Shown here one piece after another: positions 693 to 20,944 of a stretch of 64,000 bases of DNA. Under the pieces are notes generated by a model. It was not told the origin of the DNA and did not search any database. It saw nothing but the letters and a program-made list of their open reading frames with translations. A program made the translations under genes and the position numbers. The first letter of the stretch is position 1; each line of letters starts with the position of its first letter. Location of the stretch: the NCBI GenBank assembly GCA_041675085.1, contig JBAYUN010000001.1, forward strand, positions 9,829 to 73,828, written 5' to 3'. The stretch comes from Minisyncoccota bacterium (GTDB lineage: Bacteria > Patescibacteriota > Minisyncoccia > Phycocordibacterales > UBA9973).

Positions 693-1073
693 TTACTCTA
701 TATGCTCCACACTTACACCTCTAGCTTCAAATGAGGGGGTAAGAACTGAAAACCTGTGGCATTTTTTGAAATCACCCTCCGAGCACATCACACAAACTTT
801 TTTGCCAGTATTAACTGTTTCAACAAGCTCGTCTATTGTCTCCTCATACGCCGTGTTTTCGCCTAAGCCACCAAGATTAGACCCTTTGAATAGATAAGTT
901 ATATCTGCCTTAGCAAGCTCCTCTGAGAGGGCTTTTTGATTGAACTGAGGGCAGAACCTACTCCTTGGAAAACTCCTCACATCAACCAATATATCAATTT
1001 GATTATCTCGGAGTTTTTGTAAAAACTCCGAATACGCTCGACGACTATGACCGAAAGAAAAAATTTTTATCAT
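693..1073 (-). CDS. DUF488 family protein
   Basis: 126 aa; N-terminal 'IFSFGHS' and 'ILVDVRSFPRSR' match the DUF488 pattern (xIYTIGHS ... LVDVRxxPxSR). Confidence 0.7.
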   Translation of the reverse strand: MIKIFSFGHSRRAYSEFLQKLRDNQIDILVDVRSFPRSRFCPQFNQKALSEELAKADITYLFKGSNLGGLGENTAYEETIDELVETVNTGKKVCVMCSEGDFKKCHRFSVLTPSFEARGVSVEHIE

Positions 1074-1081
1074 TTTATTTT

Positions 1082-1654
1082 TTAATTTAATTCAAAAACT
1101 AAAGTATCCTTAGTTTCAGCTTTTTCAATCTCTAATGCATACGGAATAAAATCTTTAGGAACTTCATAGACAATTACTCCTTTTTCTTCAATACCTCTTC
1201 CTAAGTCTCGTCCGTCAATTGCACGCTTTTCTGCTCCAATAGCACCACTGCTTGTTGTTTGAAAAATATCGTAACTTACTCCATTACGATCAGAAAGTAG
1301 AATTCCATTAGGATATAATGTAAAAGTGCTATTTGTAGTATTTATAATTGATACATCAACCAGTATAAAAACTGTTGTGTCTTTTGAATATGTTGTGCCA
1401 AACAAAGCACCATTTATCGTGTTTACAACCTCAAAACCATTCACTCTTAATGATAGGGTGGCAAGTTGACCATCATCCCCGAATGGTACGATTGTTTGAC
1501 CCCTTGTTTCAGATGTCTTTGGTTTCGTATCCCAAGCATTATTTGTGGGCTTAAAAGCCACAAAAACACCACTCAGGGCGATTAAAAAAAGCAAGACGAT
1601 AATACTAAATTGGAAAGATTTTTGAGACATAGAATTATTGCAATCTACAATCAC
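1082..1654 (-). CDS. secreted/membrane-anchored hypothetical protein, possibly beta-sandwich (DUF4352-like)
   Basis: 190 aa; N-terminal hydrophobic signal/anchor (IIVLLFLIALSGVFVAF); rest is Thr/Asn-rich and beta-rich. Confidence 0.55.
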   Translation of the reverse strand: MIVDCNNSMSQKSFQFSIIVLLFLIALSGVFVAFKPTNNAWDTKPKTSETRGQTIVPFGDDGQLATLSLRVNGFEVVNTINGALFGTTYSKDTTVFILVDVSIINTTNSTFTLYPNGILLSDRNGVSYDIFQTTSSGAIGAEKRAIDGRDLGRGIEEKGVIVYEVPKDFIPYALEIEKAETKDTLVFELN

Positions 1655-2021
1655 GGGCTAGCTCATTTAGACTTGTTATTAACCCTTGTGCATTGGAAGT
1701 CTTACTCTGCGACAAAGCACGATTAGCGGTCGCTTCAAATCGTGTGCCTCGTGCTTTGTCCGCTATCACTTCAAGTCCAGCGACCACCATCTTATCTGTT
1801 ACTGAAACTTGATCTCCATTTACTATCTCTAGATATTGCTTGACCATAGCACAAAACGCTACGTCGTTACCCGATTGTGCCTGCTGTGTTGTCACAGGTG
1901 TAGGTGAAATAGTTTTCGTATTTGAGGCATTTGAAGCAATCACTACGAATAAGATAGTAATGATAATGACCAGAAACACAACTATATTGTTTACTTTAAC
2001 TTTTGCTTCTTTTTGTTCCAT
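1635..2021 (-). CDS. membrane-anchored hypothetical protein
   Basis: 128 aa; single N-terminal TM (VVFLVIIITILFVVIA); start codon directly follows the U-tract of the upstream terminator. Confidence 0.55.
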   Translation of the reverse strand: MEQKEAKVKVNNIVVFLVIIITILFVVIASNASNTKTISPTPVTTQQAQSGNDVAFCAMVKQYLEIVNGDQVSVTDKMVVAGLEVIADKARGTRFEATANRALSQSKTSNAQGLITSLNELARDCRLQ

Positions 2022-2331: not shown

Positions 2332-4107
2332 TTAATCAAGTTGCTTGTAGTCAACCTTAAGGAATCGTTTTCTACGATTAAACCTCGCTCTAATGTGATC
2401 TTCGATGTTTAATTTTATTTGATTCTTTCGTTCTTCATTTTCAATTTTGTCTCTATTAAGAGTAAGAATATACTGAAAAGATTCACCCTTTTCCTCTTGT
2501 TCGGCTAGATAATTGAGGCTCTGTACTAATGTGTCTTGATCAACGTCAAATATATTATCGTGCACAAGAAACATTGGATGTCGGGTACTTGTATAAGCAT
2601 TAAGCATTAGAGCGATATCGTAAATAAAAACTTTGGTTCTGTCTACGCTGTGACTTCCATCATCTGGTATTCTGAAATCTAGTTTAACAATCTGTTTACT
2701 TGTAGCAGATTTCACTGTCTCAATGTCAAAAACAATTTCAGCATTACCCATAATATATTCGTGAATGCTGGTCAGAGTTTTATTAAAGTCACGAATAATT
2801 TTTTGTGTGTCAAAAATTTTGTCATCTAATTCTGAAAACAAGTTGTCTTTTTGTCGTTTAAGCGTATCAATCTCTCGGTCTATCCTTTCGTATTCATCGA
2901 GATTGGATGTTGTTGCGGAATACTGATCTTTTCTTCTTGAATATGTATAGAAACTTTCCTTTAAGCTACTTAAAACATCATTTTTATCCACATTAGTTAA
3001 GATCGCAGATCTCTTGTCATCTAATATGTTGAGTTCTTCTTGTATGCTTTTAATTTCTGATTTAATTTCTTCTGCTCTTTCATTAATTAGTAGATTCTGA
3101 TACTTTTCTATCTTCTTTTTGAAATTAACGACTTTTTCTATTGATTCAGAAACAACAGAACCTAATCCTGACTTAAACTTGTCGTATATTAACTGAACTT
3201 CAGAAATATTAATAGACTCAACTTTTGGCATTGATTCAATTCTTTTAATTTCGTATTTTAATGCTAGTTGTCTTGTACGTAGCTTATCTATTGATGCATT
3301 AATACTGACCAAATCATCTTGATTCTGCTGAAACAGTGGTTCTGTTTTGAACTTATCGAGTGCTTCCTCTACTCGTGATAAATCTAAATCTAAGGCATTT
3401 AATTCTGCCTTAACATCAGATATTTTTTTTGCACCAGAATCAGTTAGTCGATTTTTAATATGAGAGTACGTTTGGCTTTTTCCTTCAATAGTTTTAAGTA
3501 TTTTTTTTATTTCCGTTATTAAAATAGCATTTATATTGAAAAAATATAGGTGCGTTTTTGCTAGATTTGAGTAAGGAATCTTATCTCTGAGATCGTGACA
3601 ATTAACAATATCCTTAAACTCAGAATCCTCATCTCTTATTAGAGGACTTATCAGCTGTCTAAAGGTTGGGCGTTCAATATCAGCATCTATCTTGCCACCA
3701 TAAAATAGGTTCGTTAAATAGAGGAGTGCTTCATCCACACTCTTGTATATATTTACTTCATCCTCAGTCTCAATAATGGGTTTCGATGATTCAGCTTTTG
3801 TTCTTTCAATTGTTATGTCCTTACCATTAACTGATAAGTCTAGGCGTATTCTTACATCATCTTTAAATTTATCTAAAGGGATTTTAATTACACGACTTGA
3901 ATCCTCATCTTTTAATAAACAAAAATTGATAAATTCAACGCACATTGATTTCCCAACACCATTGGTTTTTTTATCTTTCCTTGTTTTTTCATTTGAGACT
4001 GTTTCTTTATCTGACACTTTTTCACCCAAAATAAGATTAATACCATCCTCAAAAATGATAGGCTCAAAAGTTTCTGGTATTGAATAAAGTTTTTTTAATT
4101 TAATCAT
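2332..4107 (-). CDS. ABC-3C-like ABC ATPase with long coiled-coil insert (SMC/RecF-like head)
   Basis: 591 aa; Walker A 'NGVGKSM' with an unusual ~20-aa insert (GEKVSDKETVSNEKTRKDKKT) in the P-loop region; ~350-aa coiled-coil region; C-terminal 'DDGSHS' signature-like motif, Walker B/D-loop 'MFLVHDNIFDVD'; 4-nt overlap with the upstream small ORF. Confidence 0.6.
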   Translation of the reverse strand: MIKLKKLYSIPETFEPIIFEDGINLILGEKVSDKETVSNEKTRKDKKTNGVGKSMCVEFINFCLLKDEDSSRVIKIPLDKFKDDVRIRLDLSVNGKDITIERTKAESSKPIIETEDEVNIYKSVDEALLYLTNLFYGGKIDADIERPTFRQLISPLIRDEDSEFKDIVNCHDLRDKIPYSNLAKTHLYFFNINAILITEIKKILKTIEGKSQTYSHIKNRLTDSGAKKISDVKAELNALDLDLSRVEEALDKFKTEPLFQQNQDDLVSINASIDKLRTRQLALKYEIKRIESMPKVESINISEVQLIYDKFKSGLGSVVSESIEKVVNFKKKIEKYQNLLINERAEEIKSEIKSIQEELNILDDKRSAILTNVDKNDVLSSLKESFYTYSRRKDQYSATTSNLDEYERIDREIDTLKRQKDNLFSELDDKIFDTQKIIRDFNKTLTSIHEYIMGNAEIVFDIETVKSATSKQIVKLDFRIPDDGSHSVDRTKVFIYDIALMLNAYTSTRHPMFLVHDNIFDVDQDTLVQSLNYLAEQEEKGESFQYILTLNRDKIENEERKNQIKLNIEDHIRARFNRRKRFLKVDYKQLD

Positions 4108-4349
4108 CGTTTATATATATATGGTTCAGCAAAATCAATAATTCCTGATTGATAAAGGAAAATAAGAGTAAACATAAACTGTCGATAGTTTAACGATCCA
4201 ATTTCTGCTTTTAGCTTTAAAAAAATATCGTCTAGCATAACTTTTTTTTCTTCTGTCTTGCTTATTTTTTTTAAAATTAAATAACCAAGATAAGGAGGTG
4301 AAGTTTTTAGTTTTTCATCTTTATTAATCATATTAATTAGGGAAAACAT
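4104..4349 (-). CDS. small alpha-helical protein, candidate ABC-3C middle component
   Basis: 81 aa; overlaps both neighbours (4104-4107 and 4333-4349), indicating translational coupling. Confidence 0.5.
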   Translation of the reverse strand: MFSLINMINKDEKLKTSPPYLGYLILKKISKTEEKKVMLDDIFLKLKAEIGSLNYRQFMFTLIFLYQSGIIDFAEPYIYKR

Positions 4350-5289
4350 TACACTTAATTAATTCGTCTAAGACATAAAATCGAATCGCTTGGTAGTCAT
4401 ATTTCTTACCTGATTTATTTAAACATTCTGAAAAGTATTCAGTTAGCATATCGATTGCTTTTTTGGGATCTCCGTTTGTTTGTGTAAGAAAAATATCGCT
4501 TTTTATTCTTAGAAAATTTCTAATGAAATTAATCTTTACTGAATCCAAACCAAGAGTATTGTCTACCTCGCTCCTCGCAAGTGAATACCTTGGCAATAGA
4601 TCTACTATTTGATCTCTTAGGAATTGAGAATACTCAGAAAACCTATGCTCAATTTTATTCTCAGGATCTGGTTCTTCCAGCCATTGTTTTGTTTCGTTAC
4701 TTTTATTCGTGCTAAGGAAAACCACTAGATCAGCTATAGTCTCAATTTCATTCGCTAATGTCGCTTCAGGAGCACGGTCTTTTTGACTATCAAACTCTTT
4801 TCTTAGAAAACTACATATCTCCTTTATTTTATCAATATCATCTAATGATCTAATTATGGTTGTCAGTCTAGATAAATCATATATATCTCTGTCTTGGTCG
4901 AAATCAATATTGTCAGGAGAAGTAAATTTTGATTTTGACGCAGTTCTCCTAGAGACAATTAACATAAATCTTAGCGAATCAAATCTTTCTGATAATTTAT
5001 GGTCATTAAATTTTTTAATCGTTTTATCAATTTTTGCTTTCTTTTTTTCAGAAGTAACCTGAAAAGATACTCTAGCGTCACTATCTCCAAGGTCGATTGC
5101 AGGGAAATTTAAATCGAGTTCATTTAAATTTATTAAGTTTAGTTTGAATACAAGATTAAGAAGTTTACAAAAAAAATCTTCTGAAAGACCATTGATATCA
5201 TTCAAACCATTCGTGTTGTGTATTTTAACCAGAGACTCTAAACGACTAAAATAACTTATGATTTCATTGATAAGATTTTGTCGTTCCAT
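4333..5289 (-). CDS. SMEK-like N-terminal domain protein, candidate ABC-3C effector component
   Basis: 318 aa; N-terminal motifs 'NGLNDINGLSEDFFCKLLNLVF', 'NFPAIDLGD', 'RVSFQVTS' match, from memory, the SMEK domain NCBI annotates on ABC-3C effector proteins; C-terminal region helical; no recognisable nuclease/HEPN motif. Confidence 0.5.
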   Translation of the reverse strand: MERQNLINEIISYFSRLESLVKIHNTNGLNDINGLSEDFFCKLLNLVFKLNLINLNELDLNFPAIDLGDSDARVSFQVTSEKKKAKIDKTIKKFNDHKLSERFDSLRFMLIVSRRTASKSKFTSPDNIDFDQDRDIYDLSRLTTIIRSLDDIDKIKEICSFLRKEFDSQKDRAPEATLANEIETIADLVVFLSTNKSNETKQWLEEPDPENKIEHRFSEYSQFLRDQIVDLLPRYSLARSEVDNTLGLDSVKINFIRNFLRIKSDIFLTQTNGDPKKAIDMLTEYFSECLNKSGKKYDYQAIRFYVLDELIKCNVFPN

Positions 5290-5430
5290 AATTCACTTAT
5301 TATAATATATTTTAAATTTAAAATATATAGTAACTTATTCCATAAAGCACAGAAAATAGTCGAAAACTCTATGTACTTCAACTCCAAAAAAGCTCCTCCC
5401 AATGCTGAGCAGACGGTTTCAAAAGGTTAT

Positions 5431-5922
5431 TTAATAATTAACTTTATGTTGCTTCAAAATGTTTTCCAAATACTCAATTCGTTGAGTTTTTTGTTGTAAT
5501 TGATACTTTAATACTCCATTAATCGAAAATTCCTCAGGGCATTTTCTTTCAAGAAACCAACGTACCATTTTCAAATCTCCGTTTACTATAGCGTTGTAAA
5601 TTGCAACTCTAGCAAGAAAAATTGGCGTGGTCTGCAAAAGTTCAATTTTGTTGCGAAACTCAGGATATTTATTGCAGTAACGATAAAAAGAATCTGTTGA
5701 AATATCCGCAAAACAACAAGCTTCTTTAGCTGTTGCACCAATTGAAAAAGCGTATTGTAGTTTCGCAATAACTACATCAACGTTTTTACCATCAAAAAGG
5801 GGTCTCCCTGTCTTAATGTTTGGATTCGACACGACCTTATAATAAGCAGATGGTTGAAGCAAAAAATCTTTCACGTTCAACTCCTCAACATCAATCTTCA
5901 TTTTGTAGCTTGTAATACTCAT
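5431..5922 (-). CDS. phage terminase small subunit-like HTH protein
   Basis: 163 aa; 'ATAKEACCFADISTDSFYRYC' HTH followed by 'MVRWFLERKCPEEF', resembling the TerS WxLERxxPExF motif. Confidence 0.4.
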   Translation of the reverse strand: MSITSYKMKIDVEELNVKDFLLQPSAYYKVVSNPNIKTGRPLFDGKNVDVVIAKLQYAFSIGATAKEACCFADISTDSFYRYCNKYPEFRNKIELLQTTPIFLARVAIYNAIVNGDLKMVRWFLERKCPEEFSINGVLKYQLQQKTQRIEYLENILKQHKVNY

Positions 5923-6052: not shown

Positions 6053-6313
6053 GTGTTCCATTCTATGCACAATGGGGTCACAAATTTAAATATGTACATA
6101 AAAGTCAGAGTTAAAGCCGGAGCTAAGAGGGACGAGATAGAGAAGGTGAATGAGAATACCTTTAATGTTGCGGTTAAAGCTGACGCTCGGCAGAATATGG
6201 CCAATAAAAGCGTAGTTCGGCTTGTAGCTAAATACCTAGAAATTGAGGAAAATAAAGTACGAATTATCAACGGACATCAAAGTCCTAGTAAGTTGATTTC
6301 TATTTTGGATTAA
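6053..6313 (+). CDS. yggU: DUF167 (YggU) family protein
   Basis: 'VRVKAGAKRDEI...FNVAVKADARQNMANKSVVRLVAKYLEI..NKVRIINGHQSPSK' fits DUF167; true start may be the internal Met at 6092. Confidence 0.7.
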   Translation: MFHSMHNGVTNLNMYIKVRVKAGAKRDEIEKVNENTFNVAVKADARQNMANKSVVRLVAKYLEIEENKVRIINGHQSPSKLISILD

Positions 6314-6322
6314 TGCGTAGAA

Positions 6323-7270
6323 TTATTTAGTATGCAGATGCAGATAAATATCTTCTAGAGCTTTGACTCCGTCGCCTGAGGCTATGTTGTTCTGATGATA
6401 CAGGACGTTGGTGCAGTCTCCCGCAGCCCAGACGCCTTCGGTAGTAGTCTTGTTTGTCCAAGGATCTATCTTGATACGGCCTATCTCGTCTAATTCTACG
6501 ACTTCTGAAGCAAAAGAAGTATTTGGTATCTGACCTATTTCTACGAAAATCCCAGAGACTTTTAGAGTCACTTCTTCATTAGTATTTTTATCACGATAGA
6601 CTATGCCGTCTACGAATTTGTCGCCTTCTACTCTCAAAATATCGACATTTTTAATGCCTTTGAATTTTGGATTTTTGGAAAGTTTCTCGACAGTGATTTC
6701 TTCGGCGCGGTATTCAGGGCTACGATGAAGTAAGGTGACAGAATTACAATAAGCGAGTAATTGAGAAGCAGATTCAAAACCAGCGTTACCTCCGCCGATA
6801 ACTACAACGTCCATACCTGAGAATACAGGTCCGTCGCAACTCGCACAATAGGTGAGACCTTTGTGTTCTAGTCGGTCAGCATTTTCAGCCACTAATTTCC
6901 TACGGCCACTACCGGACGATATTAAAATAGTTTTAGAAATAAATTCTGTACCGCTCTCGGTTTGTATAGTAAAAGTATTGTCTTGGTTTTTAGAGAGTTT
7001 GACGACTTTTTCACCTTCTTTGATTTCTAGAGTAGCCTCAGGATTAGTTTCACTTTTAGCATTCGCTAAAACATGACTTTTAAAGCTATTCGCTAAGTCA
7101 TTTCCAGTAATACTTGGTGAGCCTATCCAATTGTAAATATACTCAGATACAATACTCTGACCGCCCCATTCAGCGAGAACTAATAAAGTTTTCATTCTTT
7201 TACGAGCTGCATAAACACTAGCCGAAACACCCGCCGGACCACCTCCAATTATTATTAAATCGTATATCAT
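6323..7270 (-). CDS. trxB: thioredoxin-disulfide reductase
   Basis: 315 aa; N-terminal FAD motif 'IIIGGGPAG', redox 'CASCDG', second Rossmann 'VVVIGGGNAG'. Confidence 0.85.
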   Translation of the reverse strand: MIYDLIIIGGGPAGVSASVYAARKRMKTLLVLAEWGGQSIVSEYIYNWIGSPSITGNDLANSFKSHVLANAKSETNPEATLEIKEGEKVVKLSKNQDNTFTIQTESGTEFISKTILISSGSGRRKLVAENADRLEHKGLTYCASCDGPVFSGMDVVVIGGGNAGFESASQLLAYCNSVTLLHRSPEYRAEEITVEKLSKNPKFKGIKNVDILRVEGDKFVDGIVYRDKNTNEEVTLKVSGIFVEIGQIPNTSFASEVVELDEIGRIKIDPWTNKTTTEGVWAAGDCTNVLYHQNNIASGDGVKALEDIYLHLHTK

Positions 7271-7446
7271 ATGGATATTATATCATATTGGTATAAAAAA
7301 ATATCCAGAATTAGATCTTTGATTACTAAATAGAAAAAAACTAATATTATGTTTTTTCGGTACAGATTTTTTGAAGCTTAAAAAATCCTGAAGTTTGCTC
7401 GCCGTCGCTCGCAAAACCCCTCAAAACATAGTATTAGTTTTTTTTG

Positions 7447-8733
7447 CTATTTCTTATTTCTGCGTAAGAAAGCTGGTACTGCAGACCAATCATCACCTTC
7501 GTCGTCGATGATTATTTCTTCTATGACTTCAGGCTTTTTTTCTATCTTTTTTATAAAATCATTATTTTGAATATTATTTACAGGGATAGAGTTAGTAGTA
7601 GAACTGGGAGTGTTTGTATTGTTGTTTGCATTATTTGCATTCAAGATAGAATTATTTGAGCTTGAAGAATTGTTTTGGATACTGTTGTGAATTTCTCTTT
7701 TTGCTACGACTACGTTCTCTTCTTTTAATACAGGTTGATTTAGGATAGCTGTACTGAAAAGAGTTTTTCTTGGCATATCAGTAGGGAAGTTGGTAGCTAT
7801 GACTGTAACTTTCAATTCTCCTTTTTTGAGTTTTTGATCATTGATAGTTCCGAAAATAACTTTTGCGTCTTTGTCTATAGATTCGGTGATTATCTTTGCA
7901 GCTTCTTGGATTTCGTGGATAGTAACGTCGTCACCTCCAGAGATAGCAAAGAGTACTCCTTTAGCTCCATGAATAGAGACTTCGAGTAATGGAGAATTGA
8001 TAGCTTGTACAGCAGCTTTCTCTGCGCGGTTTTCGCCAGATGCAGATCCGATACCCATAAGAGCACTACCAGCGTCAGACATGATAGCTTTGATATCTGC
8101 AAAGTCTACGTTGATGATACCTGGAGTAGTGATAAGGTCTGAGATACCTTCGACAGCTTGGCGCAAGACATCGTCACAAGTAGAGAAAGCATCTTTAAAG
8201 TTAGTATTCTTTTCAGAGATTTGTAGTAGTTTGTCGTTCGGAATGATAATGATAGCGTCGACTTCTTTTGCTAATTCTTCGATACCTTTTTCTGCGAGTT
8301 TAGTGCGGTGATTTCCTTCAAAGAAGAAAGGCTTGGTGACTACACCAACAGTGAGGATACCTTGTTCTTTTGCACATCTTGCAATGATAGGAGCAGCACC
8401 TGTACCTGTACCTCCGCCCATACCACAAGCGATAAATATCATGTCAGCTCCTTTGATAACATCTTGGATTTCGGCTTTAGTTTCTTCGGCTGCTTTTTTA
8501 CCAATTTCAGGATTCATTCCAGCACCGAGACCTTTGGTTAGATTTTTACCAATGTGAATTTTCTTCTCTGCGAGAGAATTGTGTAAGTCTTGAGTATCTG
8601 TGTTCATCGCAATAAAAGTCACTCCTTTAACTTTGGAATTTATCATGTGATTGACTGCGTTCTTGCCAGAGCCTCCAACTCCGATGACTACGATACGAGC
8701 AAAACTTTCTATTTCTGGGTTTACTTTAGGCAT
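7447..8733 (-). CDS. ftsZ: cell division protein FtsZ
   Basis: 'GVGGSGKNAVNHM', 'GGGTGTGAAP' tubulin signature; Asn/Ser-rich low-complexity C-terminal linker. Confidence 0.95.
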   Translation of the reverse strand: MPKVNPEIESFARIVVIGVGGSGKNAVNHMINSKVKGVTFIAMNTDTQDLHNSLAEKKIHIGKNLTKGLGAGMNPEIGKKAAEETKAEIQDVIKGADMIFIACGMGGGTGTGAAPIIARCAKEQGILTVGVVTKPFFFEGNHRTKLAEKGIEELAKEVDAIIIIPNDKLLQISEKNTNFKDAFSTCDDVLRQAVEGISDLITTPGIINVDFADIKAIMSDAGSALMGIGSASGENRAEKAAVQAINSPLLEVSIHGAKGVLFAISGGDDVTIHEIQEAAKIITESIDKDAKVIFGTINDQKLKKGELKVTVIATNFPTDMPRKTLFSTAILNQPVLKEENVVVAKREIHNSIQNNSSSSNNSILNANNANNNTNTPSSTTNSIPVNNIQNNDFIKKIEKKPEVIEEIIIDDEGDDWSAVPAFLRRNKK

Positions 8734-12830: not shown

Positions 12831-13193
12831 ATGTTAACACATAATCAAATCCTAGAATCTTCTGTGATTTTTATTGAGTTCGAAGATTCCAATCAAGATG
12901 AACCTTATCTTGTTGTAAAAAAGAGCATAGGGACTATTTCAGAAGCTATGATGCTTCTTGGGTTTAAATTTTCTGATTTATTCAAGTATTTGAAAAGCAA
13001 TATTGAATTTAATCCTTTTACTGATACTAGCTTGTTAGATCGTTTTTATATTAAATATGAAAAAGACGGATCTCATAAAGGAGTAAAATGTTATAGAAAA
13101 ATTACAGAATCAGAAAAAGTTAAAATTTCAAATGAATTAGATTCATTTGAATTATTCGACAAAAAATTACAGGAAGTAATATTTAACTCTTAA
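12831..13193 (+). CDS. hypothetical protein
   Basis: 120-aa ORF; no recognisable motifs; followed by a hairpin plus T-run. Confidence 0.5.
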   Translation: MLTHNQILESSVIFIEFEDSNQDEPYLVVKKSIGTISEAMMLLGFKFSDLFKYLKSNIEFNPFTDTSLLDRFYIKYEKDGSHKGVKCYRKITESEKVKISNELDSFELFDKKLQEVIFNS

Positions 13194-13326
13194 AAAGGAT
13201 ACTTTCTGCAAACAAAAAGCTTTGAGCATTATGTTCGAAGCTTTTTTTTATTTGCTTTAAATACTTTTTCTATTTATATTTATAACGAAAGGCAATTTTG
13301 CAGTAGTACTTTTAAAATAATAAATA

Positions 13327-13812
13327 ATGAAAGCATTATACGATAAGAGTGATAGAGATTATTATATTCTTTTTGAGGAAGGTGAAATATCTAAAATCCT
13401 AGCAGGTGCTAAACTCATTTGTCTGCTTTATATGAGATCAAGTGGTCAAGCTAGATTCATAGAATACATGAGGCCAAATTTTGAAATCCATATTTTGGAA
13501 ACAAACCTCGATCTTTTTACAAGGCAAAAGAGTTTATTTGAAAATAAATCATATACATTTTCTTACAGTGACGTTTTGCTGGAATATCCTTTGCAAGGTA
13601 CTATCCGTTTATTTTTATCAAAAGAATGGATTGAGATAGGTTTGAATGAAGAATTGTTGAACCGTTGCGGTATGAATGAACAGAGGTATTGCACCTCAGG
13701 GAGTAAGGTCCATTTTTATTCAAAGGATAGTAAACATATGATGACTAGTCAGCAGAACATGATATTTGAATCAGAAGAAATAGCTTGGACTAAGGAATAT
13801 GGTAACTCGTAA
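13327..13812 (+). CDS. hypothetical protein
   Basis: 161-aa ORF; no recognisable motifs. Confidence 0.5.
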   Translation: MKALYDKSDRDYYILFEEGEISKILAGAKLICLLYMRSSGQARFIEYMRPNFEIHILETNLDLFTRQKSLFENKSYTFSYSDVLLEYPLQGTIRLFLSKEWIEIGLNEELLNRCGMNEQRYCTSGSKVHFYSKDSKHMMTSQQNMIFESEEIAWTKEYGNS

Positions 13813-13833
13813 AATAGCTCATAAAAAATTAGA

Positions 13834-13971
13834 TTGAAAGAGTTTTGAATTTAATATTCAAGACTCTTTTTTATTATTAACCTTGCTAAATACTAAGAAT
13901 TGTGTTATTCTATTTTTGATATAGTCCTTTGATAAAGATAAGGATATTTTTAAATCTTAAAATTTTAAACA
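13834..13971 (+). repeat. intergenic terminator-promoter module, copy A
   Basis: About 85-90% identical over ~140 bp to 14443..14579; hairpin AAAGAGTTTTGAA...TTCAAGACTCTTT plus T-run, then TTGCTA-17 nt-TATTCT promoter-like motif, ending at the ATG. Confidence 0.7.
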
Positions 13972-14430
13972 ATGAACAAGAGTGTTGGCTTAGGTTCTTT
14001 TTTTATTGGGGCTGGAGTAGCCTTAATTTTTACTTTAAATTTAAATGATAATTCTGTTGAGCTTATCATTAAATTTTGTATTGGAGGACTTTTTGTTGTA
14101 TTACCTTATTTTTTAATTATTTCATCTTATGATATCAGTCAAATAAGATACATTGATGATTTGAGCGATGGCAAAAAATTTACAGTGATTTGTAAGTTTG
14201 AAAATATGTTCAAAGACAATACTGCTAATTATTCTCGCTTGTTATTTATTGTTAATGAGGTAAAAGATTATGATTTTTTTTTAATAAGCATGTCGGTAAA
14301 AGATTATAACAGTACAGGAACAAAAGAAGAATTTTTCTTTTGTTCTCTTAACCGAAGTATTTCTTTAAATTTAGAAGACTATAAAACTTATTTTAAAAAA
14401 GAGGGTAAATTTTTTCTTTTAGAAGAATAG
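13972..14430 (+). CDS. hypothetical membrane protein
   Basis: 152 aa; two N-terminal TM helices. Confidence 0.5.
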   Translation: MNKSVGLGSFFIGAGVALIFTLNLNDNSVELIIKFCIGGLFVVLPYFLIISSYDISQIRYIDDLSDGKKFTVICKFENMFKDNTANYSRLLFIVNEVKDYDFFLISMSVKDYNSTGTKEEFFFCSLNRSISLNLEDYKTYFKKEGKFFLLEE

Positions 14431-14442
14431 AAATTTATTTTA

Positions 14443-14579
14443 AATTGAAAGAGTTTTGGATATTATATTCAAGACTCTTTTTAATTTCATGACTTGCTAA
14501 ATACTAAGAATTGTGTTATTGTATTTTTGACATAGTCCTTTAACATAGGATATTTTTAAATCTTAAAAATTTTTAAATT
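14443..14579 (+). repeat. intergenic terminator-promoter module, copy B
   Basis: Near-identical to 13834..13971, ending at the ATG of the next gene. Confidence 0.7.
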
Positions 14580-14840
14580 ATGAATACTAAGAGTTTTAAT
14601 TCTATTGAGCCAGTTGATGGCATGTTAGGATTTCTTGCTTTGTGGCTATTTTTAATATACCTAACGGTATTTAAAATAGTAGGTACAGAAACAATAAATA
14701 CCTTACCTCCAATTGGAGGAGTAGCATTTGCTTTGTTGTTAATTTTACTTATGTTTCCATCAATGTGGGTGGTGTCTAAAGTTGTATTTTTTTTGACACA
14801 TAAAAAATATAAACATGAAAGCAGATTTCAAAACTATTAA
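14580..14840 (+). CDS. hypothetical small membrane protein
   Basis: 86 aa; two TM helices. Confidence 0.45.
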   Translation: MNTKSFNSIEPVDGMLGFLALWLFLIYLTVFKIVGTETINTLPPIGGVAFALLLILLMFPSMWVVSKVVFFLTHKKYKHESRFQNY

Positions 14841-15066
14841 AAAATCAGTAGCATTACCAGAAGGTTTCACTTCAGTTGAAACGGGGCTACCAATCTTAAA
14901 GTTGAGAGTTACGTGCTTCATGAGTAACGGTACTTCTTTCATTGGTTGGAGATATCATAATGTGATGAGAAGTGGATGGTATATTTATTATGATCCTGAC
15001 CTCCGTGCTAACTTAGATTGGGGTGGTGTTCACTTATTGGGTTGGAAATTCATAGAACATGAATAA
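14815..15066 (+). CDS. hypothetical protein
   Basis: 83-aa ORF overlapping the previous gene by 26 nt in another frame; followed by a terminator-like hairpin at ~15080-15117. Confidence 0.4.
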   Translation: MKADFKTIKKSVALPEGFTSVETGLPILKLRVTCFMSNGTSFIGWRYHNVMRSGWYIYYDPDLRANLDWGGVHLLGWKFIEHE

Positions 15067-15140
15067 TTACATTTAAAGTATAAGAGTTTTGCGTATTTGT
15101 TATGCAAAGCTCTTTTTTATTTGTGTTATAATATAAGTAT

Positions 15141-15241
15141 GAATCCCGTTAAAAATTTTAAAGAACGGGAGTTATAATGTATTTTATTTAGAACTTATAA
15201 CGTGTAGTTTAATTATAAATTAATCAAAAATATTTAACGGG
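15141..15241 (+). promoter_or_regulatory. conserved 5' leader module (palindrome TCCCGTT-N13-AACGGGA plus 34-nt block ending AAATATTTAACGGG-ATG), copy 1
   Basis: Shares a 34-nt identical block and the same palindrome-to-ATG spacing (~71-73 nt) with the minus-strand region 20945..21045. Confidence 0.6.
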
Positions 15242-15589
15242 ATGAAAATAATTTTACAATGGTTGATCGTCGCAGGAGCGGTTTTGGCTACTTCTTATAT
15301 CGTACCGGGGATATCTGTGGCGAGTTTTTATATTGCTCTTATTGTGGCTTTAGTCTGGGGAGTATTTAGTTTGTCTATTAAGCCAATATTGCATATTTTA
15401 ACCCTACCTATCACTATCTTAACTCTAGGACTTTTCTCCCTCGTGATTAATGGATTATTGTTCTGGTTTATCTCTACTTTTATCAAAGGTTTTCAAGTAG
15501 AGAGTTTTGTTTCAGCGATACTGGGTGCTTTTGCAGTCTCTATTATTACTTGGTTTTTGGGTATCATCCTTTTACCAAAAGAAGATTAG
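15242..15589 (+). CDS. DUF360/YvlD-type 'phage holin family' small membrane protein
   Basis: 115 aa; four TM segments; 'LSIKPILHILTLPITILTLGLFSLVINGLLF' pattern typical of this family. Confidence 0.6.
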   Translation: MKIILQWLIVAGAVLATSYIVPGISVASFYIALIVALVWGVFSLSIKPILHILTLPITILTLGLFSLVINGLLFWFISTFIKGFQVESFVSAILGAFAVSIITWFLGIILLPKED

Positions 15590-15615
15590 TATGAATACAT
15601 AGGGTAACCCTATGT

Positions 15616-15652
15616 AAAAAGCCCTCAGCCGTCAGGCTGAGGGCTTTTTTGT
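15616..15652 (+). terminator. rho-independent terminator
   Basis: GCCCTCAGCC-gtca-GGCTGAGGGC followed by TTTTTT. Confidence 0.85.
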
Positions 15653-15707
15653 TGTTTTCATTTTTACTATTAGTTATCCACATTTTTCTTTGATTTATTG
15701 TTTGTGT

Positions 15708-15755
15708 AGTGGGGTAGAGTGGTGTACAATATATATGAAGTGGGAAAAAGTGGGA
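15708..15755 (+). promoter_or_regulatory. mraZ promoter with candidate MraZ-box direct repeats
   Basis: AGTGG(G/T) repeats at 15708, 15718, 15739, 15749 (about 10-bp periodicity) flanking a TACAAT -10 hexamer (15725-15730), ~25 nt upstream of the mraZ ATG. Confidence 0.45.
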
Positions 15756-15778
15756 TGAGAATTTAAGTAGAATAATTT

Positions 15779-16216
15779 ATGCTAATAGGAGAATATACAC
15801 ACAAAATAGATGAAAAAGGACGTGTTTCTTTACCTGCAAAATGGAGGAAAGAAATGGGTAACAAAATCATCATAACAAGAGGACTCGACAATTGTTTGTT
15901 TGTATTTACTTCGAAAGAGTGGATTAAATTATCAGCTGAATTATCTTCTTCATCATGGTTGAAGTCTGATACCCGTGCTTTTAATAGAAGAATATTTGGA
16001 GGAGCAACAGAAGTCGAGATAGATACAGTCGGTAGAATGCTCTTACCAGAATTCTTGAAAAAAGAAGCTAGTTTGGTAGATATGGACAAAGCCGTATTGA
16101 TAGGAGTCGATAATAGAATAGAAGTTTGGAATGAAGTCGTTTGGTCGGATTATAAAAACATTACTGATAAACAAGCCGATGAGATAGCAGAGAAAATCGG
16201 TAATACAATTCGATAA
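15779..16216 (+). CDS. mraZ: transcriptional regulator MraZ
   Basis: 145 aa; two 'KGRVSLP'/'GRMLLP'-type half-domains. Confidence 0.9.
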   Translation: MLIGEYTHKIDEKGRVSLPAKWRKEMGNKIIITRGLDNCLFVFTSKEWIKLSAELSSSSWLKSDTRAFNRRIFGGATEVEIDTVGRMLLPEFLKKEASLVDMDKAVLIGVDNRIEVWNEVVWSDYKNITDKQADEIAEKIGNTIR

Positions 16217-17115
16217 TGACTACAGTCCATAAAAGCGTTCTTTTAAAAGAAACTATAGAAGGTCTAAATCTGTCTAATGCATCTGTCGTTATCGACGGGA
16301 CTTTCGGTGGAGGAGGGCATACCAAAGAGATATTGACTCAATACCCGAACACAAAAGTTATCGCTATCGATAGGGATATCGGAGCTTTTGATAGAGCTAT
16401 GAGTAAACTCGTAGGTTTAGAAGATAGGATATCTTTCCATAATTTAAATTTTAAAGATTTAAATTATGCATTAGAGAGAGAAGATATCGAGCAAGTTGAT
16501 GCTATTTTACTCGACTTGGGACTTTCTTCAGATCAGCTCGATAATTCTAAAAGAGGATTTTCATTTCTAAGAGATGAAGACTTGCTTATGACTATGAAAG
16601 AGTCACCAGACGGAGACGACGTCACAGCCAAAGATATAGTCAATACTTGGAGTGAAGAATCTATCGCAGATATTATCTACGGGTACGGAGAAGAGACTTT
16701 TGCTCGAGTTATCGCTCGCAATATTGTCCTGGCTCGTAAGGATAAAGAAATAAATACTACTTTTGATCTAGTAAAGATTATCGAGAGTAGTGTCAATAAA
16801 TCTTACCGTAACAAAAAGACTCATTGCGCTACAAAGACTTTCCAAGCTTTACGTATAGCTACCAACGACGAATTGCAAAGCATAGAACAAGCTTTAGAAA
16901 AAAGTTTAGAAGCTTTAAAAGTAGGAGGACGTCTAGCAGTGATTAGTTTCCATAGTCTCGAAGACAGGATAGTAAAGAATTTCTATAAAACAAAATCCCA
17001 AAACAAAGAAGTTATTTTGATAAATAAGAAACCAATAATCCCAGGTGAAGAAGAATTAAAAGAAAATAAAAGATCTCGTAGTGCCAAACTAAGAATTTTA
17101 GAAAAAATATTATAA
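16216..17115 (+). CDS. rsmH: 16S rRNA (cytosine1402-N4)-methyltransferase RsmH
   Basis: 299 aa; 'HKSVLLKETIEGL', 'DGTFGGGGH' SAM motif. Confidence 0.9.
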   Translation: MTTVHKSVLLKETIEGLNLSNASVVIDGTFGGGGHTKEILTQYPNTKVIAIDRDIGAFDRAMSKLVGLEDRISFHNLNFKDLNYALEREDIEQVDAILLDLGLSSDQLDNSKRGFSFLRDEDLLMTMKESPDGDDVTAKDIVNTWSEESIADIIYGYGEETFARVIARNIVLARKDKEINTTFDLVKIIESSVNKSYRNKKTHCATKTFQALRIATNDELQSIEQALEKSLEALKVGGRLAVISFHSLEDRIVKNFYKTKSQNKEVILINKKPIIPGEEELKENKRSRSAKLRILEKIL

Positions 17116-17136
17116 ATTAATTAAAACAAAAACAAA

Positions 17137-17511
17137 ATGAAACAAGCAAGTATAAAAGTGAAAAATTATAAAGACGCAATAGATACTATAGATAGCAGAA
17201 TAGGTCTACGTAGTAAGGTTCTGTATTTTATTGTGGTAGCTTTCGGTATTTTTTCTTTTTTGTATGTTCTTGTTTTAGGCAATATGATTTTTAATATCAT
17301 CGAACGCAAAACCGTCGAATTAGATATCCGCAATTTGGCAAATGAAGTCGGCAATTTGGAATCAGACTATATAGCGCTCGCGAATACTATAGACAAGAAT
17401 TCCTCGGTCAGTTTTGGCTTCAATGAGATAAGTCCAGTTTTTGCTACTAGAACCGCTATTGGTTTTATTCCAGAAGGTAATAATACAAGATTAGCAGCAA
17501 ATGAAATCTAA
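17137..17511 (+). CDS. ftsL: cell division protein FtsL-like (single TM plus coiled coil)
   Basis: 124 aa; TM at ~aa 28-50; position between rsmH and ftsI. Confidence 0.55.
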   Translation: MKQASIKVKNYKDAIDTIDSRIGLRSKVLYFIVVAFGIFSFLYVLVLGNMIFNIIERKTVELDIRNLANEVGNLESDYIALANTIDKNSSVSFGFNEISPVFATRTAIGFIPEGNNTRLAANEI

Positions 17512-19213
17512 TTTTAGTTTTCGAATCAAAATAATATCTTTCTTAATAATCCTTACTTCTTTTGTTTTTGTTGTGAGGATTTTTATGTTGCAGGTAGTGC
17601 AAAAAGAAGTTTTTGCGGAACGTGCTGATAGACAATACGTCACTCCGTCTTCAAATATCTATGAGCGTGGAAGTATTTTGTTTACTCGCAAAGACGGCGA
17701 ATTAGTATCTGGAGCAATGCAGATATCAGGTTTTAAGCTGGCTATAAATCCTAATCTTATTAAAGACAAAGAGGCTTTATACAAAAAACTATCTAGTATC
17801 GTAGAGATTGACTATAACGATTTTATTCTAAAAGCGAGTAAAAGCTCTGACCCTTATGAAGACATAAAGGGGCAACTACCGAAAGACGTAGCCGACAAGA
17901 TATCAGCTTTAAAATTAACAGGAGTTGAAGTCCATAAAGAAAAATGGCGTTTTTATCCAGGAGGGAATTTCGCTTCGCACTCTTTAGGTTTCGTCGGCTA
18001 TAATGGTAATTCCTTAGAAGGGCGGTACGGACTCGAGAGACAATACAACGGAGTCCTCTCGAGAGATAAAGATAACCCATACGTAAACTTTTTCGCAGAA
18101 GTCTTTTCGGATTTGAAAGAGAATCTTTTTGTAAATAATACTAAAAAAGGAGATATCATAACGACTATCGAACCCAACGTCGAGAGTTTCCTAGAGAAAG
18201 AAATAAACTTAGTTCGAGATAAATACAATGCCGACGCTATCGGCGGTATTATCATGAATCCAAAAGATGGATCTATCTATGCTATTTCTTCAAAGCCTGA
18301 TTTTGATTTGAACAATTTCTCTAAAGTAAAAGACGTATCTCTCTTTCGTAATCCTCTAGTCGAGAACGTTTTGGAATTCGGTTCTATTGTAAAGCCTCTT
18401 GTTATCGCTTCGGCTCTCGACGCAAAAGTTATTACAGCCGAGACTTTTTACAATGACTTGGGCTCGGTCACAGTTGAGAAAAAACAAATATACAACTTCG
18501 ACAAAAAAGGTCGCGGCCCAAATACTACAATGCAAGACGTGCTTAATCAATCTCTAAACACAGGTATGGTATACGCTTATCAAAAGCTTGGCAAAGACCG
18601 CATGAGAGACTATATGTTGGCTTATGGATTGAAAGACAAAACAGGTATTGATTTACCGAATGAGACATCTGGACTTGTATCAAACTTAAATAGTCCTCGC
18701 GAATTAGAATACGCCAACGCTTCTTTCGGGCAAGGTATCGCTATGACTCCGGTCAATATGATACGAGCATTAGCTGCACTCGGTAATGGAGGTAACCTAG
18801 TCACTCCGCATTTCGTACAGAAAATAAAATACGATGACGGTACATTTAAAGAGATGACTTATCCGACCAAGCCTACAAAGATAACTAAAGAGACGAGTGC
18901 TGAGATAAGTCGCATGCTAGTCACCGTGATGGACAAATCTCTAAAAGGTGGTACTGCTAAATTCGACCGCCACAGCGTCGCAGTAAAGACGGGTACAGCT
19001 CAAGTGGCTCGCCCTGACGGCAAAGGATATTATGATGATAGAAATACGCATTCTTTCTTTGGTTATTTCCCAGCTTATGATCCGCAATTCATAGTCTTGC
19101 TCTATGCAGTGAATCCAAAAGGTACGCCTTTTGCTTCCGTGACTTGGTCAGATCCTTTTTTGAATATTACTAAATTTTTGCTAAACTACTATGAAGTTCC
19201 GCCAGACAGATAG
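17501..19213 (+). CDS. ftsI: peptidoglycan D,D-transpeptidase (PBP, FtsI-like)
   Basis: 570 aa; N-terminal TM; SxxK 'SIVKP', SxN 'SLNTG', KTG 'KTGTA'. Confidence 0.9.
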   Translation: MKSNFSFRIKIISFLIILTSFVFVVRIFMLQVVQKEVFAERADRQYVTPSSNIYERGSILFTRKDGELVSGAMQISGFKLAINPNLIKDKEALYKKLSSIVEIDYNDFILKASKSSDPYEDIKGQLPKDVADKISALKLTGVEVHKEKWRFYPGGNFASHSLGFVGYNGNSLEGRYGLERQYNGVLSRDKDNPYVNFFAEVFSDLKENLFVNNTKKGDIITTIEPNVESFLEKEINLVRDKYNADAIGGIIMNPKDGSIYAISSKPDFDLNNFSKVKDVSLFRNPLVENVLEFGSIVKPLVIASALDAKVITAETFYNDLGSVTVEKKQIYNFDKKGRGPNTTMQDVLNQSLNTGMVYAYQKLGKDRMRDYMLAYGLKDKTGIDLPNETSGLVSNLNSPRELEYANASFGQGIAMTPVNMIRALAALGNGGNLVTPHFVQKIKYDDGTFKEMTYPTKPTKITKETSAEISRMLVTVMDKSLKGGTAKFDRHSVAVKTGTAQVARPDGKGYYDDRNTHSFFGYFPAYDPQFIVLLYAVNPKGTPFASVTWSDPFLNITKFLLNYYEVPPDR

Positions 19214-19248
19214 TAAAATACATAAATTTTAAATTAAAATAAATTCCC

Positions 19249-20601
19249 ATGAAACAAACTTTCAAAAAAATAATCTTAAATATCCTTAAAATAGAAGCTC
19301 AATTAGTTATTAAAAAATACAAACCCAAGATAATAACTATCACCGGTTCTCTCGGCAAGACTTCTACCAAAGACGCTATCTATGCAGTCTTGTCAGACGT
19401 ATATCATGTACGCATGAGCGAGAAGAGTTATAACAGTCAGATAGGTTTGCCTCTGACTATACTTGGATTGCCGAATGGTTGGAATGACCCTATGGTCTGG
19501 ATATTGAATATCTTGAAAGGTTTAAAATTGATAATCTTTAAAACTAAGTATCCTGAATATTTAGTCCTCGAAGTTGGAGTCGGTAAGCCGGGCGATATGA
19601 AAGAGACTGCTATGTGGCTACAGAGTGACGTCGTCGTTATGACGGCTATCGGCGACGTGCCAGCACATGTAGAATTCTTTAAATCCCGCGAGCATCTAAT
19701 AGAAGAAAAAAGTGGACTTATCAAAACTCTTAAAAAAGAGGGGACGCTAGTCTTGAATACAGACGACGCTGATATCCTCGCTATGAAGACCAAGACAAAA
19801 TCCCGTATTACGACTTATGGTTTTAATGAGCGTGCAGACCTTGTTTGTAGTAATGAAAATATTTTCTATATTCATCCTGATCATGATAATCAAGAAAAAA
19901 ATAAAGAACTGAATATTGAAAAAATCCTAAAAGAAACTATACCTGAAGGTATTACTTTTAGAGTCGACGTCGAAGGCGCTAGCTTCCCTGTAATCATCGA
20001 AGGAGTTTTCGGTAAGAATCATATCTATGCATCTCTAGCTTCGCTCGCTGTAGCTCATAGCTTAAAATTAAGCTTACTCGAATCTATCAATGCACTCAAG
20101 AATTATGAAGTCCCAGCTGGACGTATGAGATTGTTGCTAGGGGAGAATAATACTATCATCATCGACGATACTTATAACTCTTCACCCTTTGCTGTAGAGT
20201 CGGCTTTAAAGACTTTGAGTAGTATTGATTCATCTCCGAGAAAGATAGCTGTGCTTGGCGATATGCTCGAATTAGGACGTCATACCGAAGAGGCTCACAA
20301 TCATATCGGTAAAATAGCTAAAGAAACTATAGATATATTAGTAGTAGTCGGGCCGAGGGCTCAATCTATCAAAACTGGTGCTCTAGCGTCAGGTATGAAA
20401 GAAGAGAATATTTTTGAATTCCCGACAGCAATACTAGCAGGAGAATTCTTGAAAACATTTATTAAAAGGGGAGATATTATTTTGATTAAAGGTTCGCAAG
20501 GAGTACGCATGGAGCGCACAGTAGAGAAGATCTTAAAAGACAAACACAAAAAAGAAAAACTTCTCGTCAGACAAGAAAAGGAATGGATAGATAAAGAATA
20601 A
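19249..20601 (+). CDS. murF: UDP-N-acetylmuramoyl-tripeptide--D-alanyl-D-alanine ligase
   Basis: 450 aa; Mur ligase P-loop 'ITGSLGKTSTKD'; MurF-type C-terminus 'ILIKGSQGVRMERTVEKIL'. Confidence 0.8.
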   Translation: MKQTFKKIILNILKIEAQLVIKKYKPKIITITGSLGKTSTKDAIYAVLSDVYHVRMSEKSYNSQIGLPLTILGLPNGWNDPMVWILNILKGLKLIIFKTKYPEYLVLEVGVGKPGDMKETAMWLQSDVVVMTAIGDVPAHVEFFKSREHLIEEKSGLIKTLKKEGTLVLNTDDADILAMKTKTKSRITTYGFNERADLVCSNENIFYIHPDHDNQEKNKELNIEKILKETIPEGITFRVDVEGASFPVIIEGVFGKNHIYASLASLAVAHSLKLSLLESINALKNYEVPAGRMRLLLGENNTIIIDDTYNSSPFAVESALKTLSSIDSSPRKIAVLGDMLELGRHTEEAHNHIGKIAKETIDILVVVGPRAQSIKTGALASGMKEENIFEFPTAILAGEFLKTFIKRGDIILIKGSQGVRMERTVEKILKDKHKKEKLLVRQEKEWIDKE

Positions 20602-20605
20602 TAAA

Positions 20606-20944
20606 TTATTTTCTATTGTATTTATCTTCGAGTCTGACTATATCATGCTCGTCGAATTCTCCGAGAGCTATCTCTAAGAATGAAATATCGGTAATACCTT
20701 GCATCCTGTGATTGGTATTTTCAGGGATAAATATTTCTTCGCCTTCTTTAGTCTCGCGAGTCTCGTCGCCTATAGTGACCAAGCCTTGACCTTTGAGTAT
20801 TTTCCAGAATTCAGCTCTATTGTTATGATACTGCAAACTAAAAGCTTCGTCTTTTTTGACGGTTATTATTTTGACTGTACTCTTTTGATTTAAAGTAAAA
20901 CGTTCAAATTCTCCCCAAGGTCTTTGTTCTGTGTATTTTTCCAT
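20606..20944 (-). CDS. cupin domain protein
   Basis: 112 aa; 'PWGEFERFTLNQKSTVKIITVKKDEAFSLQYHNNRAEFWKILKGQG' matches the small cupin/mannose-6-phosphate-isomerase-like fold. Confidence 0.7.
   Translation of the reverse strand: MEKYTEQRPWGEFERFTLNQKSTVKIITVKKDEAFSLQYHNNRAEFWKILKGQGLVTIGDETRETKEGEEIFIPENTNHRMQGITDISFLEIALGEFDEHDIVRLEDKYNRK

Follow-up and report, generated by a model that had tools for sequence, protein, structure and literature searches.

A probable SMEK-type short Lamassu (ABC-3C) operon on a mobile island of a Paceibacterota genome

The stretch of DNA analyzed here (the window; 64,000 nt, positions 9,829-73,828 of the forward strand of contig JBAYUN010000001.1, assembly GCA_041675085.1) carries three tightly packed genes on its minus strand, herein lmuA, lmuC, and lmuB, whose proteins have as their exact source a 529-kb contig of a Paceibacterota metagenome-assembled genome. 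Public annotation labels the three products separately, as “SMEK domain-containing protein”, “hypothetical protein”, and “DUF2326 domain-containing protein” or “AAA family ATPase”; a protein identical to the 318-residue LmuA is deposited as [quoted passage not shown]. Open reading frames (ORFs) of 318 and 591 codons at ∼31% G+C are far beyond chance, and each has many homologs. We put at roughly four in five the probability that the locus is an intact three-gene type II “short” Lamassu defence operon of the ABC-three-component (ABC-3C) class, lmuA-lmuC-lmuB, on a mobile island of a Paceibacterota (candidate phyla radiation, CPR) genome. Table 1 collects the coordinates.

Defining the gene boundaries required a choice of start codon for lmuC. 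An earlier reading of the locus, made from the letters alone (the sequence-only reading), had described three minus-strand ORFs overlapping by 17 and 4 nt. The ORFs and the 4-nt overlap of lmuC with lmuB (ATGA) stand, whereas the 17-nt overlap is probably an artifact of taking the longest ORF, because the ATG of the 81-residue frame falls within the conserved AAT-GTT codons of the LmuA tail CNVFPN (...KCNVFPN), homologous middle genes start ∼2 to 4 residues ahead of a conserved L(I/V)SKDE motif, and both of two independent public gene calls use the start at M7. With that start the lmuA/lmuC junction reads TAA-T-ATG, a 1-nt spacer, and the genes are still tightly packed. The motifs quoted in the sequence-only reading are all found in the sequence (NGVGKSM, DDGSHS, MFLVHDNIFDVD, the insert SDKETVSNEKTRKDKKT, GLNDINGLSEDFF, NFPAIDLGD, and SFQVTS).

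Table 1. Features of the operon, its neighbors, and a further LOOT locus (window coordinates unless a locus is named)
Feature	Coordinates	Strand	Description
lmuA	4333-5289	minus	318 aa; SMEK_N nuclease head and C-terminal adaptor domain; from ORF, Pfam, and NCBIfam
SMEK_N domain of LmuA	4780-5289	minus	~aa 1-170; predicted PD-(D/E)xK (Mrr-like) nuclease head; invariant E37, D66, Q77, K86
LmuA C-terminal domain	4336-4767	minus	aa 175-318; helical adaptor/oligomerization domain with the invariant CNVFPN tail at its end
lmuC	4104-4331	minus	middle component, most likely 75 aa from M7; longest ORF reaches 4349 (81 aa)
lmuB	2332-4107	minus	591 aa; short SMC/Rad50-like ABC ATPase, DUF2326/YydD family
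Intergenic region upstream of lmuA	5290-5430	minus	141 nt, AT-rich; read from sequence
TerS-like gene	5431-5922	minus	163 aa; phrog_4102 (PHROG small-terminase family), E 5e-13
LOOT RNA (Rfam RF03000)	2086-2212	minus	full length; 75.4 bits against a threshold of 46.4
LOOT RNA, locus L087	L087 9744-9883	minus	other known positions include 15 metagenome loci, L097-L162

LmuA opens with a SMEK domain, as the sequence-only reading had recognized. The protein matches SMEK_N in Pfam (E 2.6e-41, residues 9 through 146) and in NCBIfam (E 2.7e-29), and PADLOC, scanned like the other two collections at a report threshold of E 0.1, aligned residues 1 through 171 to its Argonaute-associated “REase” model (E 1.7e-42). 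The structure model (predicted local distance difference test score, pLDDT, 84.5) has two domains, of which the C-terminal one is all-helical. The sole solved structure matched by sequence is PDB 26bh, “the Mrr domain from Kordia jejudonensis Mrr-APAZ pAgo” (E 9.9e-21 with the single sequence; E 3.8e-37 with a 47-member profile), and structural comparison gives the SMEK domain a restriction-endonuclease, PD-(D/E)xK fold whose neighbors include MspJI, AspBHI, and CdiA-CT tRNases, modification-dependent or RNA-targeting enzymes. The earlier statement that the effector holds no recognizable nuclease has to be withdrawn, and the suggestion that its output may be new is not supported: the SMEK domain has a PD-(D/E)xK fold and homology to a solved Mrr-type nuclease domain, which make it a predicted nuclease, and the literature lists SMEK both as a nuclease effector of short Argonaute systems and as a Lamassu effector class.

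The PD-(D/E)xK class was judged on an alpha-beta-beta-beta-alpha-beta core in which beta-2 opens with an acidic residue, beta-3 bears (D/E/Q)xK, and helix 1 carries a Glu. Among LmuA homologs down to 28% identity E37, D66, Q77, and K86 are invariant, and T79 and S80 nearly so; E37 lies in the first long helix, D66 just ahead of a strand, Q77 in the next strand, and K86 in the helix that follows. The pattern E37...D66...Q77-x-T79...K86 is an Mrr-like E...D...QxK with Thr79 at the lysine position and an invariant Lys seven residues on. Judged by these residues, the active site appears non-canonical and catalysis plausible. A Cell Research article (PMC12205087) names the Kordia partner SMEK-APAZ, reports weak collateral DNase activity of its complex, and counts SMEK as a nuclease effector domain.

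An exhaustive phmmer search with the C-terminal domain of LmuA alone (residues 175 through 318) returned 179 proteins of three kinds. Most have a SMEK head on this domain and span ∼315 to 325 residues; a consistent set of ∼170 to 190 residues comprises the C-terminal domain only; and the third kind has an HNH endonuclease head. The gene for the HNH-headed form is followed by an MC6 gene, and that for the head-less form by MC6 and then DUF2326 genes. The C-terminal domain of LmuA is a swappable adaptor that carries SMEK, HNH, or no head, and interchangeable heads on a conserved adaptor are what defines ABC-3C/Lamassu effectors; HNH as the alternative head on the same adaptor supports a nuclease role for SMEK.

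One head-less operon, comprising a 177-residue LmuA, MC6, and DUF2326, is found in phage-like surroundings, with genes for the large terminase and the portal immediately preceding it (L211 4001-6500, and also L212). A Lamassu that lacks an effector and is carried by a phage, possibly as a decoy or an anti-defence module, is one reading of it; the “clade O” described by Haudiquet et al. is another. A tblastn search of a phage collection with LmuA gave only a partial N-terminal match, in a Klebsiella phage.

LmuB is an SMC-type ATPase with a split head, as the sequence-only reading had concluded. Pfam DUF2326 matches its C-terminal head half (E 1.9e-22), and two PADLOC models match over the full length (PDC-M68B, E 7.8e-53; LmuB, E 2e-8). 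The model (pLDDT 85.6; predicted template-modeling score, pTM, 0.72) shows a split head and long antiparallel helices; its best Foldseek match is Bacillus subtilis YydD (9a6c_A, E 3.6e-26, TM 0.61), followed by the Lamassu LmuB chains 9uxh_F (1.9e-12), 9hqx_B (5.4e-12), 9hqu_A, and 9ux7_A (∼1e-11 to 1e-12) and, after these, by Rad50, SMC, and RecN. Walker A (K53-S54), a signature-like motif (D482 through S487, DDGSHS), and Walker B (F513 through D517, FLVHD), with N518 directly after it, can all be read in the sequence, and K53, DDGSHS, FLVHD, and Asn518 are invariant among homologs. RecF, RecN, or SbcC membership of the 591-residue protein, the case the sequence-only reading had set against itself, was not seen, no such family appearing in the Pfam, NCBIfam, and PADLOC scans at the report threshold.

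Two details of that reading needed correction. The coiled coil, put at ∼350 residues, corresponds in the model to a helical arm from approximately residue 179 to 453, or ∼275 residues. The charged insert before the P-loop, called unusual, is a family trait of variable length, present in 119/119 aligned LmuB homologs and only ∼4 to 6 residues longer in the window protein, where it forms a lower-confidence loop in the model. LmuB has no CxxC zinc hook. The Asn after the Walker B Asp (FLVHDN) stands in the place of the catalytic Glu and is invariant in 26 orthologs from many phyla and in 57 database homologs, which suggests, at the level of sequence, an ATPase tuned for binding or for slow hydrolysis.

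The small middle protein had been assigned as the middle component from its size and position, and its family bears this out. Against Pfam MC6 (“ABC-3C middle component 6”) the window LmuC itself reaches E 1e-4 and 22.7 bits. LmuC can be placed in the MC6 family because 23 of 27 orthologs from related loci match MC6, with a best E of 2e-9. Its gene lies between those for LmuA and LmuB in 80/80 related loci. An LmuC profile found only spurious KaiC-type matches in the PDB.

To place the operon among its relatives we used 80 loci from a degenerate-pattern scan for LmuA relatives, one genome per species; retrieved via an LmuA C-terminal peptide, they sample one C-terminal-domain family only. The order A-C-B, with gaps or overlaps of a few bases, holds in 80/80 of these loci, from at least eight phyla, so that the synteny proposed as a check is found throughout, the middle gene and the ATPase gene lying directly downstream of the LmuA gene. 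The source records name, among others, Patescibacteria, Paenibacillus, Desulfosporosinus, Flavobacteriaceae, Methylobacterium, Devosia, Pseudomonas, Halomonas, Sulfurimonas, Acidobacteriota, Cloacimonadota, and Planctomicrobium. Nine full-length copies are on plasmids of Agrobacterium, Rhizobium, and Sphingomonas, where the plasmid-borne copies adjoin transposases and toxin-antitoxin genes, and PHROG families exist for LmuA-like and LmuB-like proteins.

The SMEK_N, MC6, and DUF2326/LmuB profiles and the synteny agree in classifying the operon as ABC-3C, the class of Krishnan et al. (2020) that is type II Lamassu; it is most probably a further example of a catalogued Lamassu subtype with a recognizable nuclease effector rather than a new system. 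A long and a short form of Lamassu are distinguished by Haudiquet et al. (bioRxiv 2025; PNAS 2025), the short LmuB having ∼600 residues, zero to two CxxC hooks, and a Walker B of hhhhD followed by Q, S, T, or E; they list SMEK, HNH, and lipase as heads specific to short Lamassu and describe a clade that lost the head. Like the short systems V. cholerae DdmABC and Salmonella LmuACB, the window operon has three genes in the order A-C-B, an LmuB of ∼600 residues without an obligatory zinc hook, a small middle component, an effector built from a head and a C-terminal adaptor, a residue other than Glu after the Walker B Asp, and a mobile-element or defence-island context. It differs in using SMEK where the characterized short systems use a Cap4-type nuclease head, and in its host, an uncultured Paceibacterota; the solved LmuB chains (9uxh, 9hqx, 9hqu, 9ux7) match window LmuB in fold without detectable sequence similarity, the C-terminal domain of LmuA falls outside the Pfam C-terminal-domain models, and the Asn agrees with the published Walker B set, D[Q/S/T/E], in spirit (non-Glu) rather than to the letter.

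Four further systems share parts with the operon. YydD of the B. subtilis YydB-YydD pair (9a6c, an integrative model) has Pfam DUF2326 in common with window LmuB, at 18% identity in the structural alignment, and the Joint Genome Institute names homologs of window LmuB “YydD”. YydB resembles the C-terminal domain of LmuA weakly (query TM score, TMq, 0.32 over 148 columns) and is longer, with 481 residues in that model against 318 for LmuA; its head is not known to be SMEK. The SMEK(Mrr)-APAZ partner of the Kordia jejudonensis short Argonaute (“SPARMA”, 26bh) has a nuclease domain homologous to the LmuA head over ∼165 residues, and the two proteins both keep E37, D66, Q77, T79, S80, and K86 (LmuA numbering). 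In the Kordia system as in Lamassu, a nucleic-acid sensor distinct from the head releases or activates it as the effector; the Kordia sensor is a guide-loaded short Argonaute bound via APAZ, with activation by target recognition and, in related systems, by filament or oligomer formation, whereas the Lamassu sensor is an SMC-like ATPase bound via the Lamassu C-terminal domain. Rad50/SbcC-Mre11/SbcD, the proposed evolutionary source of Lamassu, resembles LmuB in its ABC head, which an antiparallel coiled coil divides, and in the sensing of DNA ends; window LmuB has a much shorter coiled coil, no zinc hook, and no Mre11/SbcD phosphoesterase partner, and is instead linked to MC6 and a nuclease-adaptor protein, with a patchy, mobile distribution. 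For the uncharacterized PADLOC candidate PDC-M68, whose component B is the full-length match of LmuB given above, no partner model matches the 318- or 81-residue protein, and the term “PDC-M68” was not found in the searchable literature.

Cryo-electron microscopy of Vibrio, Salmonella, and Bacillus Lamassu has shown that two LmuB and one LmuC sequester a monomeric LmuA via its C-terminal domain, that DNA ends are sensed, that released LmuA tetramerizes through the C-terminal domain, and that two nuclease heads then form one active site and degrade DNA, giving abortive infection. The A1:B2:C1 complex and DNA-end activation are known for Cap4-type systems only. By analogy with these complexes, the mechanism of the window operon would most likely be as follows. 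LmuB2-LmuC1 would hold a single LmuA by its C-terminal domain, monomeric and inactive, and the LmuB heads with LmuC would detect an invading phage or plasmid by its free DNA ends or replication intermediates. LmuA would be freed when ATP is bound or turned over, turnover probably being slow given the invariant Asn in place of Glu after the Walker B Asp. Free LmuA would oligomerize by its C-terminal domain and so pair the SMEK nuclease heads into an active site; indiscriminate DNA degradation would then kill the infected cell or stop its growth (abortive infection). The mobile-island and plasmid contexts lend indirect support to such a putative anti-phage or anti-plasmid role.

The island that carries the operon holds, in order, the TerS-like (terminase-small-subunit-like) gene, lmuA-C-B, a LOOT RNA, a 128-residue membrane-like ORF, DUF4352 and DUF488 genes, 247- and 60-residue ORFs, and a large serine recombinase of 577 residues just beyond the window start (L081 15541-17274). 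Its G+C is 0.30 to 0.32 against 0.37 in the flanks, and the chromosomal genes trxB, ftsZ, and ftsA lie on one side. The TerS-like gene and the recombinase are at opposite ends of the ∼8-kb lower-G+C block, a layout like that of a satellite or prophage remnant; no convincing att-like direct or inverted repeats bounding the island were found in this AT-rich DNA. A similar set, consisting of Lamassu, LOOT, a TerS-like gene, and a serine recombinase followed by tRNA genes, is present in the independent Patescibacteria locus L002. The TerS-like gene had been pointed out in the sequence-only reading as lying upstream on the same strand, and its PHROG match agrees; as a component of the system it was rejected, being found in only 1/80 loci, at a different position, and we regard it as a neighbor on the mobile island. 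The 247-residue ORFs beside the recombinases of the window and L002 are of equal length and unrelated.

Several observations weigh against a short Lamassu operon with a nuclease effector. Sequence searches of the PDB with LmuB, as a single sequence and as a 26-member profile, miss the solved Lamassu chains and return coiled-coil noise, with Rad50 at E 0.23, so that the link to these chains rests on the fold and on the PADLOC hidden Markov model. The window's own LmuC falls below the curated Pfam MC6 cut-off of 27.2 bits. None of 47 LmuA homologs (0/47) matches any Pfam ABC-3C C-terminal-domain model, and hhalign of the LmuA family against a SMEK+CTD12 protein aligns confidently through the SMEK head only; the match of the C-terminal domain to YydB is weak. 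The classical (D/E)xK lysine position of the SMEK active site is Thr79, the invariant Lys86 lying in the following helix, and the sole biochemistry cited for a SMEK domain (PMC12205087) is a “weak” nuclease activity. No experimental study of a SMEK-type Lamassu was found in the searchable literature, and activity, trigger, and stoichiometry are extrapolated from Cap4-type systems. As CPR hosts are uncultured, phage defence should not be assumed to be the selected function on the island.

The active site and the weak activity, together with structural neighbors such as MspJI, AspBHI, and the CdiA-CT tRNases, would suit a Lamassu/ABC-3C chassis in which the output of the SMEK head is another or a new one: instead of an indiscriminate DNase, the head might be an RNase, a nickase that depends on a site or a modification, or a non-catalytic DNA-binding module. 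We consider this unlikely: the head is strongly homologous to a domain deposited as an Mrr nuclease domain, its acidic/polar/Lys constellation is fully invariant across phyla, HNH nucleases occupy the same adaptor in sister operons, an indication that the SMEK head is their functional equivalent, and SMEK is classed among nuclease effectors (PMC12205087). That the module serves the mobile element rather than the host is very unlikely; in that case it would provide addiction or exclusion for an island of satellite-like or prophage-remnant nature, killing cells that lose the element or blocking competing elements. A serine recombinase does lie within a few kb of the operon in 4/5 CPR loci with usable flanks, and the TerS-like genes of the window and L002, the PHROG families, the head-less version beside phage terminase and portal genes, and the transposases and toxin-antitoxin genes next to plasmid copies all fit such a role. 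Neither an antitoxin-like partner nor attachment (att) sites were identified, however, and the proposal is compatible with the Lamassu operon favored here, defence systems being commonly mobile cargo and the molecular mechanism the same. A housekeeping SMC-like module of the RecN, RecF, or SbcC/Rad50 type, acting in DNA repair or chromosome maintenance and not in conflict, is extremely improbable, and was rejected on profiles, structural ranking, distribution, and context. LmuB does have a Rad50/SMC fold, with Rad50 and SMC heads among its Foldseek matches, ftsZ, ftsA, and trxB are near, and Lamassu is reported to have evolved from SbcCD; but the RecF, RecN, and SbcC families all miss the report threshold in the Pfam, NCBIfam, and PADLOC scans, YydD and Lamassu LmuB rank ahead of Rad50 structurally, and in all 80 loci the ATPase gene is accompanied by genes for a nuclease-adaptor protein and an MC6 protein. 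The patchy spread over at least eight phyla and plasmids, the low-G+C island with its serine recombinase and TerS-like gene, and the invariant Asn in place of Glu after Walker B likewise speak for the Lamassu operon.

The region between the TerS-like gene and lmuA probably holds the operon's own promoter. A TATAAT lies ∼11 nt before the lmuA ATG, and a weak hairpin and T-run follow the TerS-like gene; a consensus promoter scan found no minus-strand promoter-like site within the region. An AT-rich palindrome in perfect register (TTACTATATATTTTAAA / TTTAAAATATATTATAA; 88% complementary; window 5300-5333, L081 9957-9990) lies immediately before the start of lmuA, in overlap with the TATAAT, and may represent an operator or simply chance in AT-rich DNA.

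Downstream of the operon, the LOOT RNA lies 120 nt past the lmuB stop, with a TGCTATAAT box (TGnTATAAT) upstream and a terminator-like hairpin (2053-2034) and T-run downstream. LOOT occupies the same place after lmuB in L002 (10054-10182), and follows a 953-residue gene in L083 (∼2955-3081, minus strand); in a viral contig from IMG/VR it comes after a type I HsdR gene. A pattern scan of metagenomes with Rfam confirmation identified true LOOT in 15/15 further loci tested. Within ±5 kb of the 19 LOOT loci, a large serine recombinase is found in 8/19, a ParB-N/DNA-methylase in 7/19 (its small partner family in 8/19), and a TerS-like gene in 3/19; among the 15 loci chosen neither through Lamassu nor through a viral database, 11 have a recombinase or methylase. 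In four loci a large gene on the same strand ends just upstream of LOOT, namely lmuB (twice), hsdR, and the 953-residue gene.

As a dedicated partner of Lamassu LOOT was rejected, lmuB lying directly upstream in just 2/19 LOOT loci; from the neighborhoods across the 19 loci it looks like a landmark of mobile elements with variable defence cargo. We tentatively propose, at somewhat less than even odds, that the operon is cargo of a family of small mobile elements, so far undescribed, from low-GC, uncultured bacteria of the Patescibacteria type. Its members would be marked by the orphan LOOT RNA and a large serine recombinase or ParB-N/DNA-methylase, sometimes with a TerS-like gene (satellite-like), and the defence cargo would be inserted directly ahead of LOOT, on its strand. 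If this is true, the elements would encode LOOT themselves, as an RNA that regulates or leads into element genes downstream or that serves as a landmark for integration or packaging, and the orphan motif would gain its first biological context.

Two neighborhoods deserve separate mention. Downstream of LOOT in the window (693-2021, minus), genes for the 128-residue protein, which has a hydrophobic N-terminal segment, the DUF4352 protein (also phrog_806, E 2e-12), and the DUF488 protein are on the operon's strand. In L083, a Saccharibacteria-labeled contig, the Lamassu operon appears to lie in a dense neighborhood of conflict genes (6107-7684 and 13084-20922), with a gene fusing a LexA/S24 peptidase to a DNA methylase and a serine recombinase on one side, and an Imm33-like immunity gene and a 2646-residue RHS/SpvB/YD-shell polymorphic-toxin gene on the other.

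The main value of the analysis is one of annotation, in that three separately labeled genes together would make a complete Lamassu system; the association with LOOT is the only potentially new lead. On this reading, reduced-genome CPR bacteria would carry SMC-based abortive defence on mobile islands. The SMEK head common to Lamassu and short Argonaute is a clear case of effector shuffling between unrelated sensors, and the locus, as an intact SMEK-type Lamassu of compact size, lends itself to asking whether the Cap4 sequester-release-oligomerize mechanism extends to another nuclease head.

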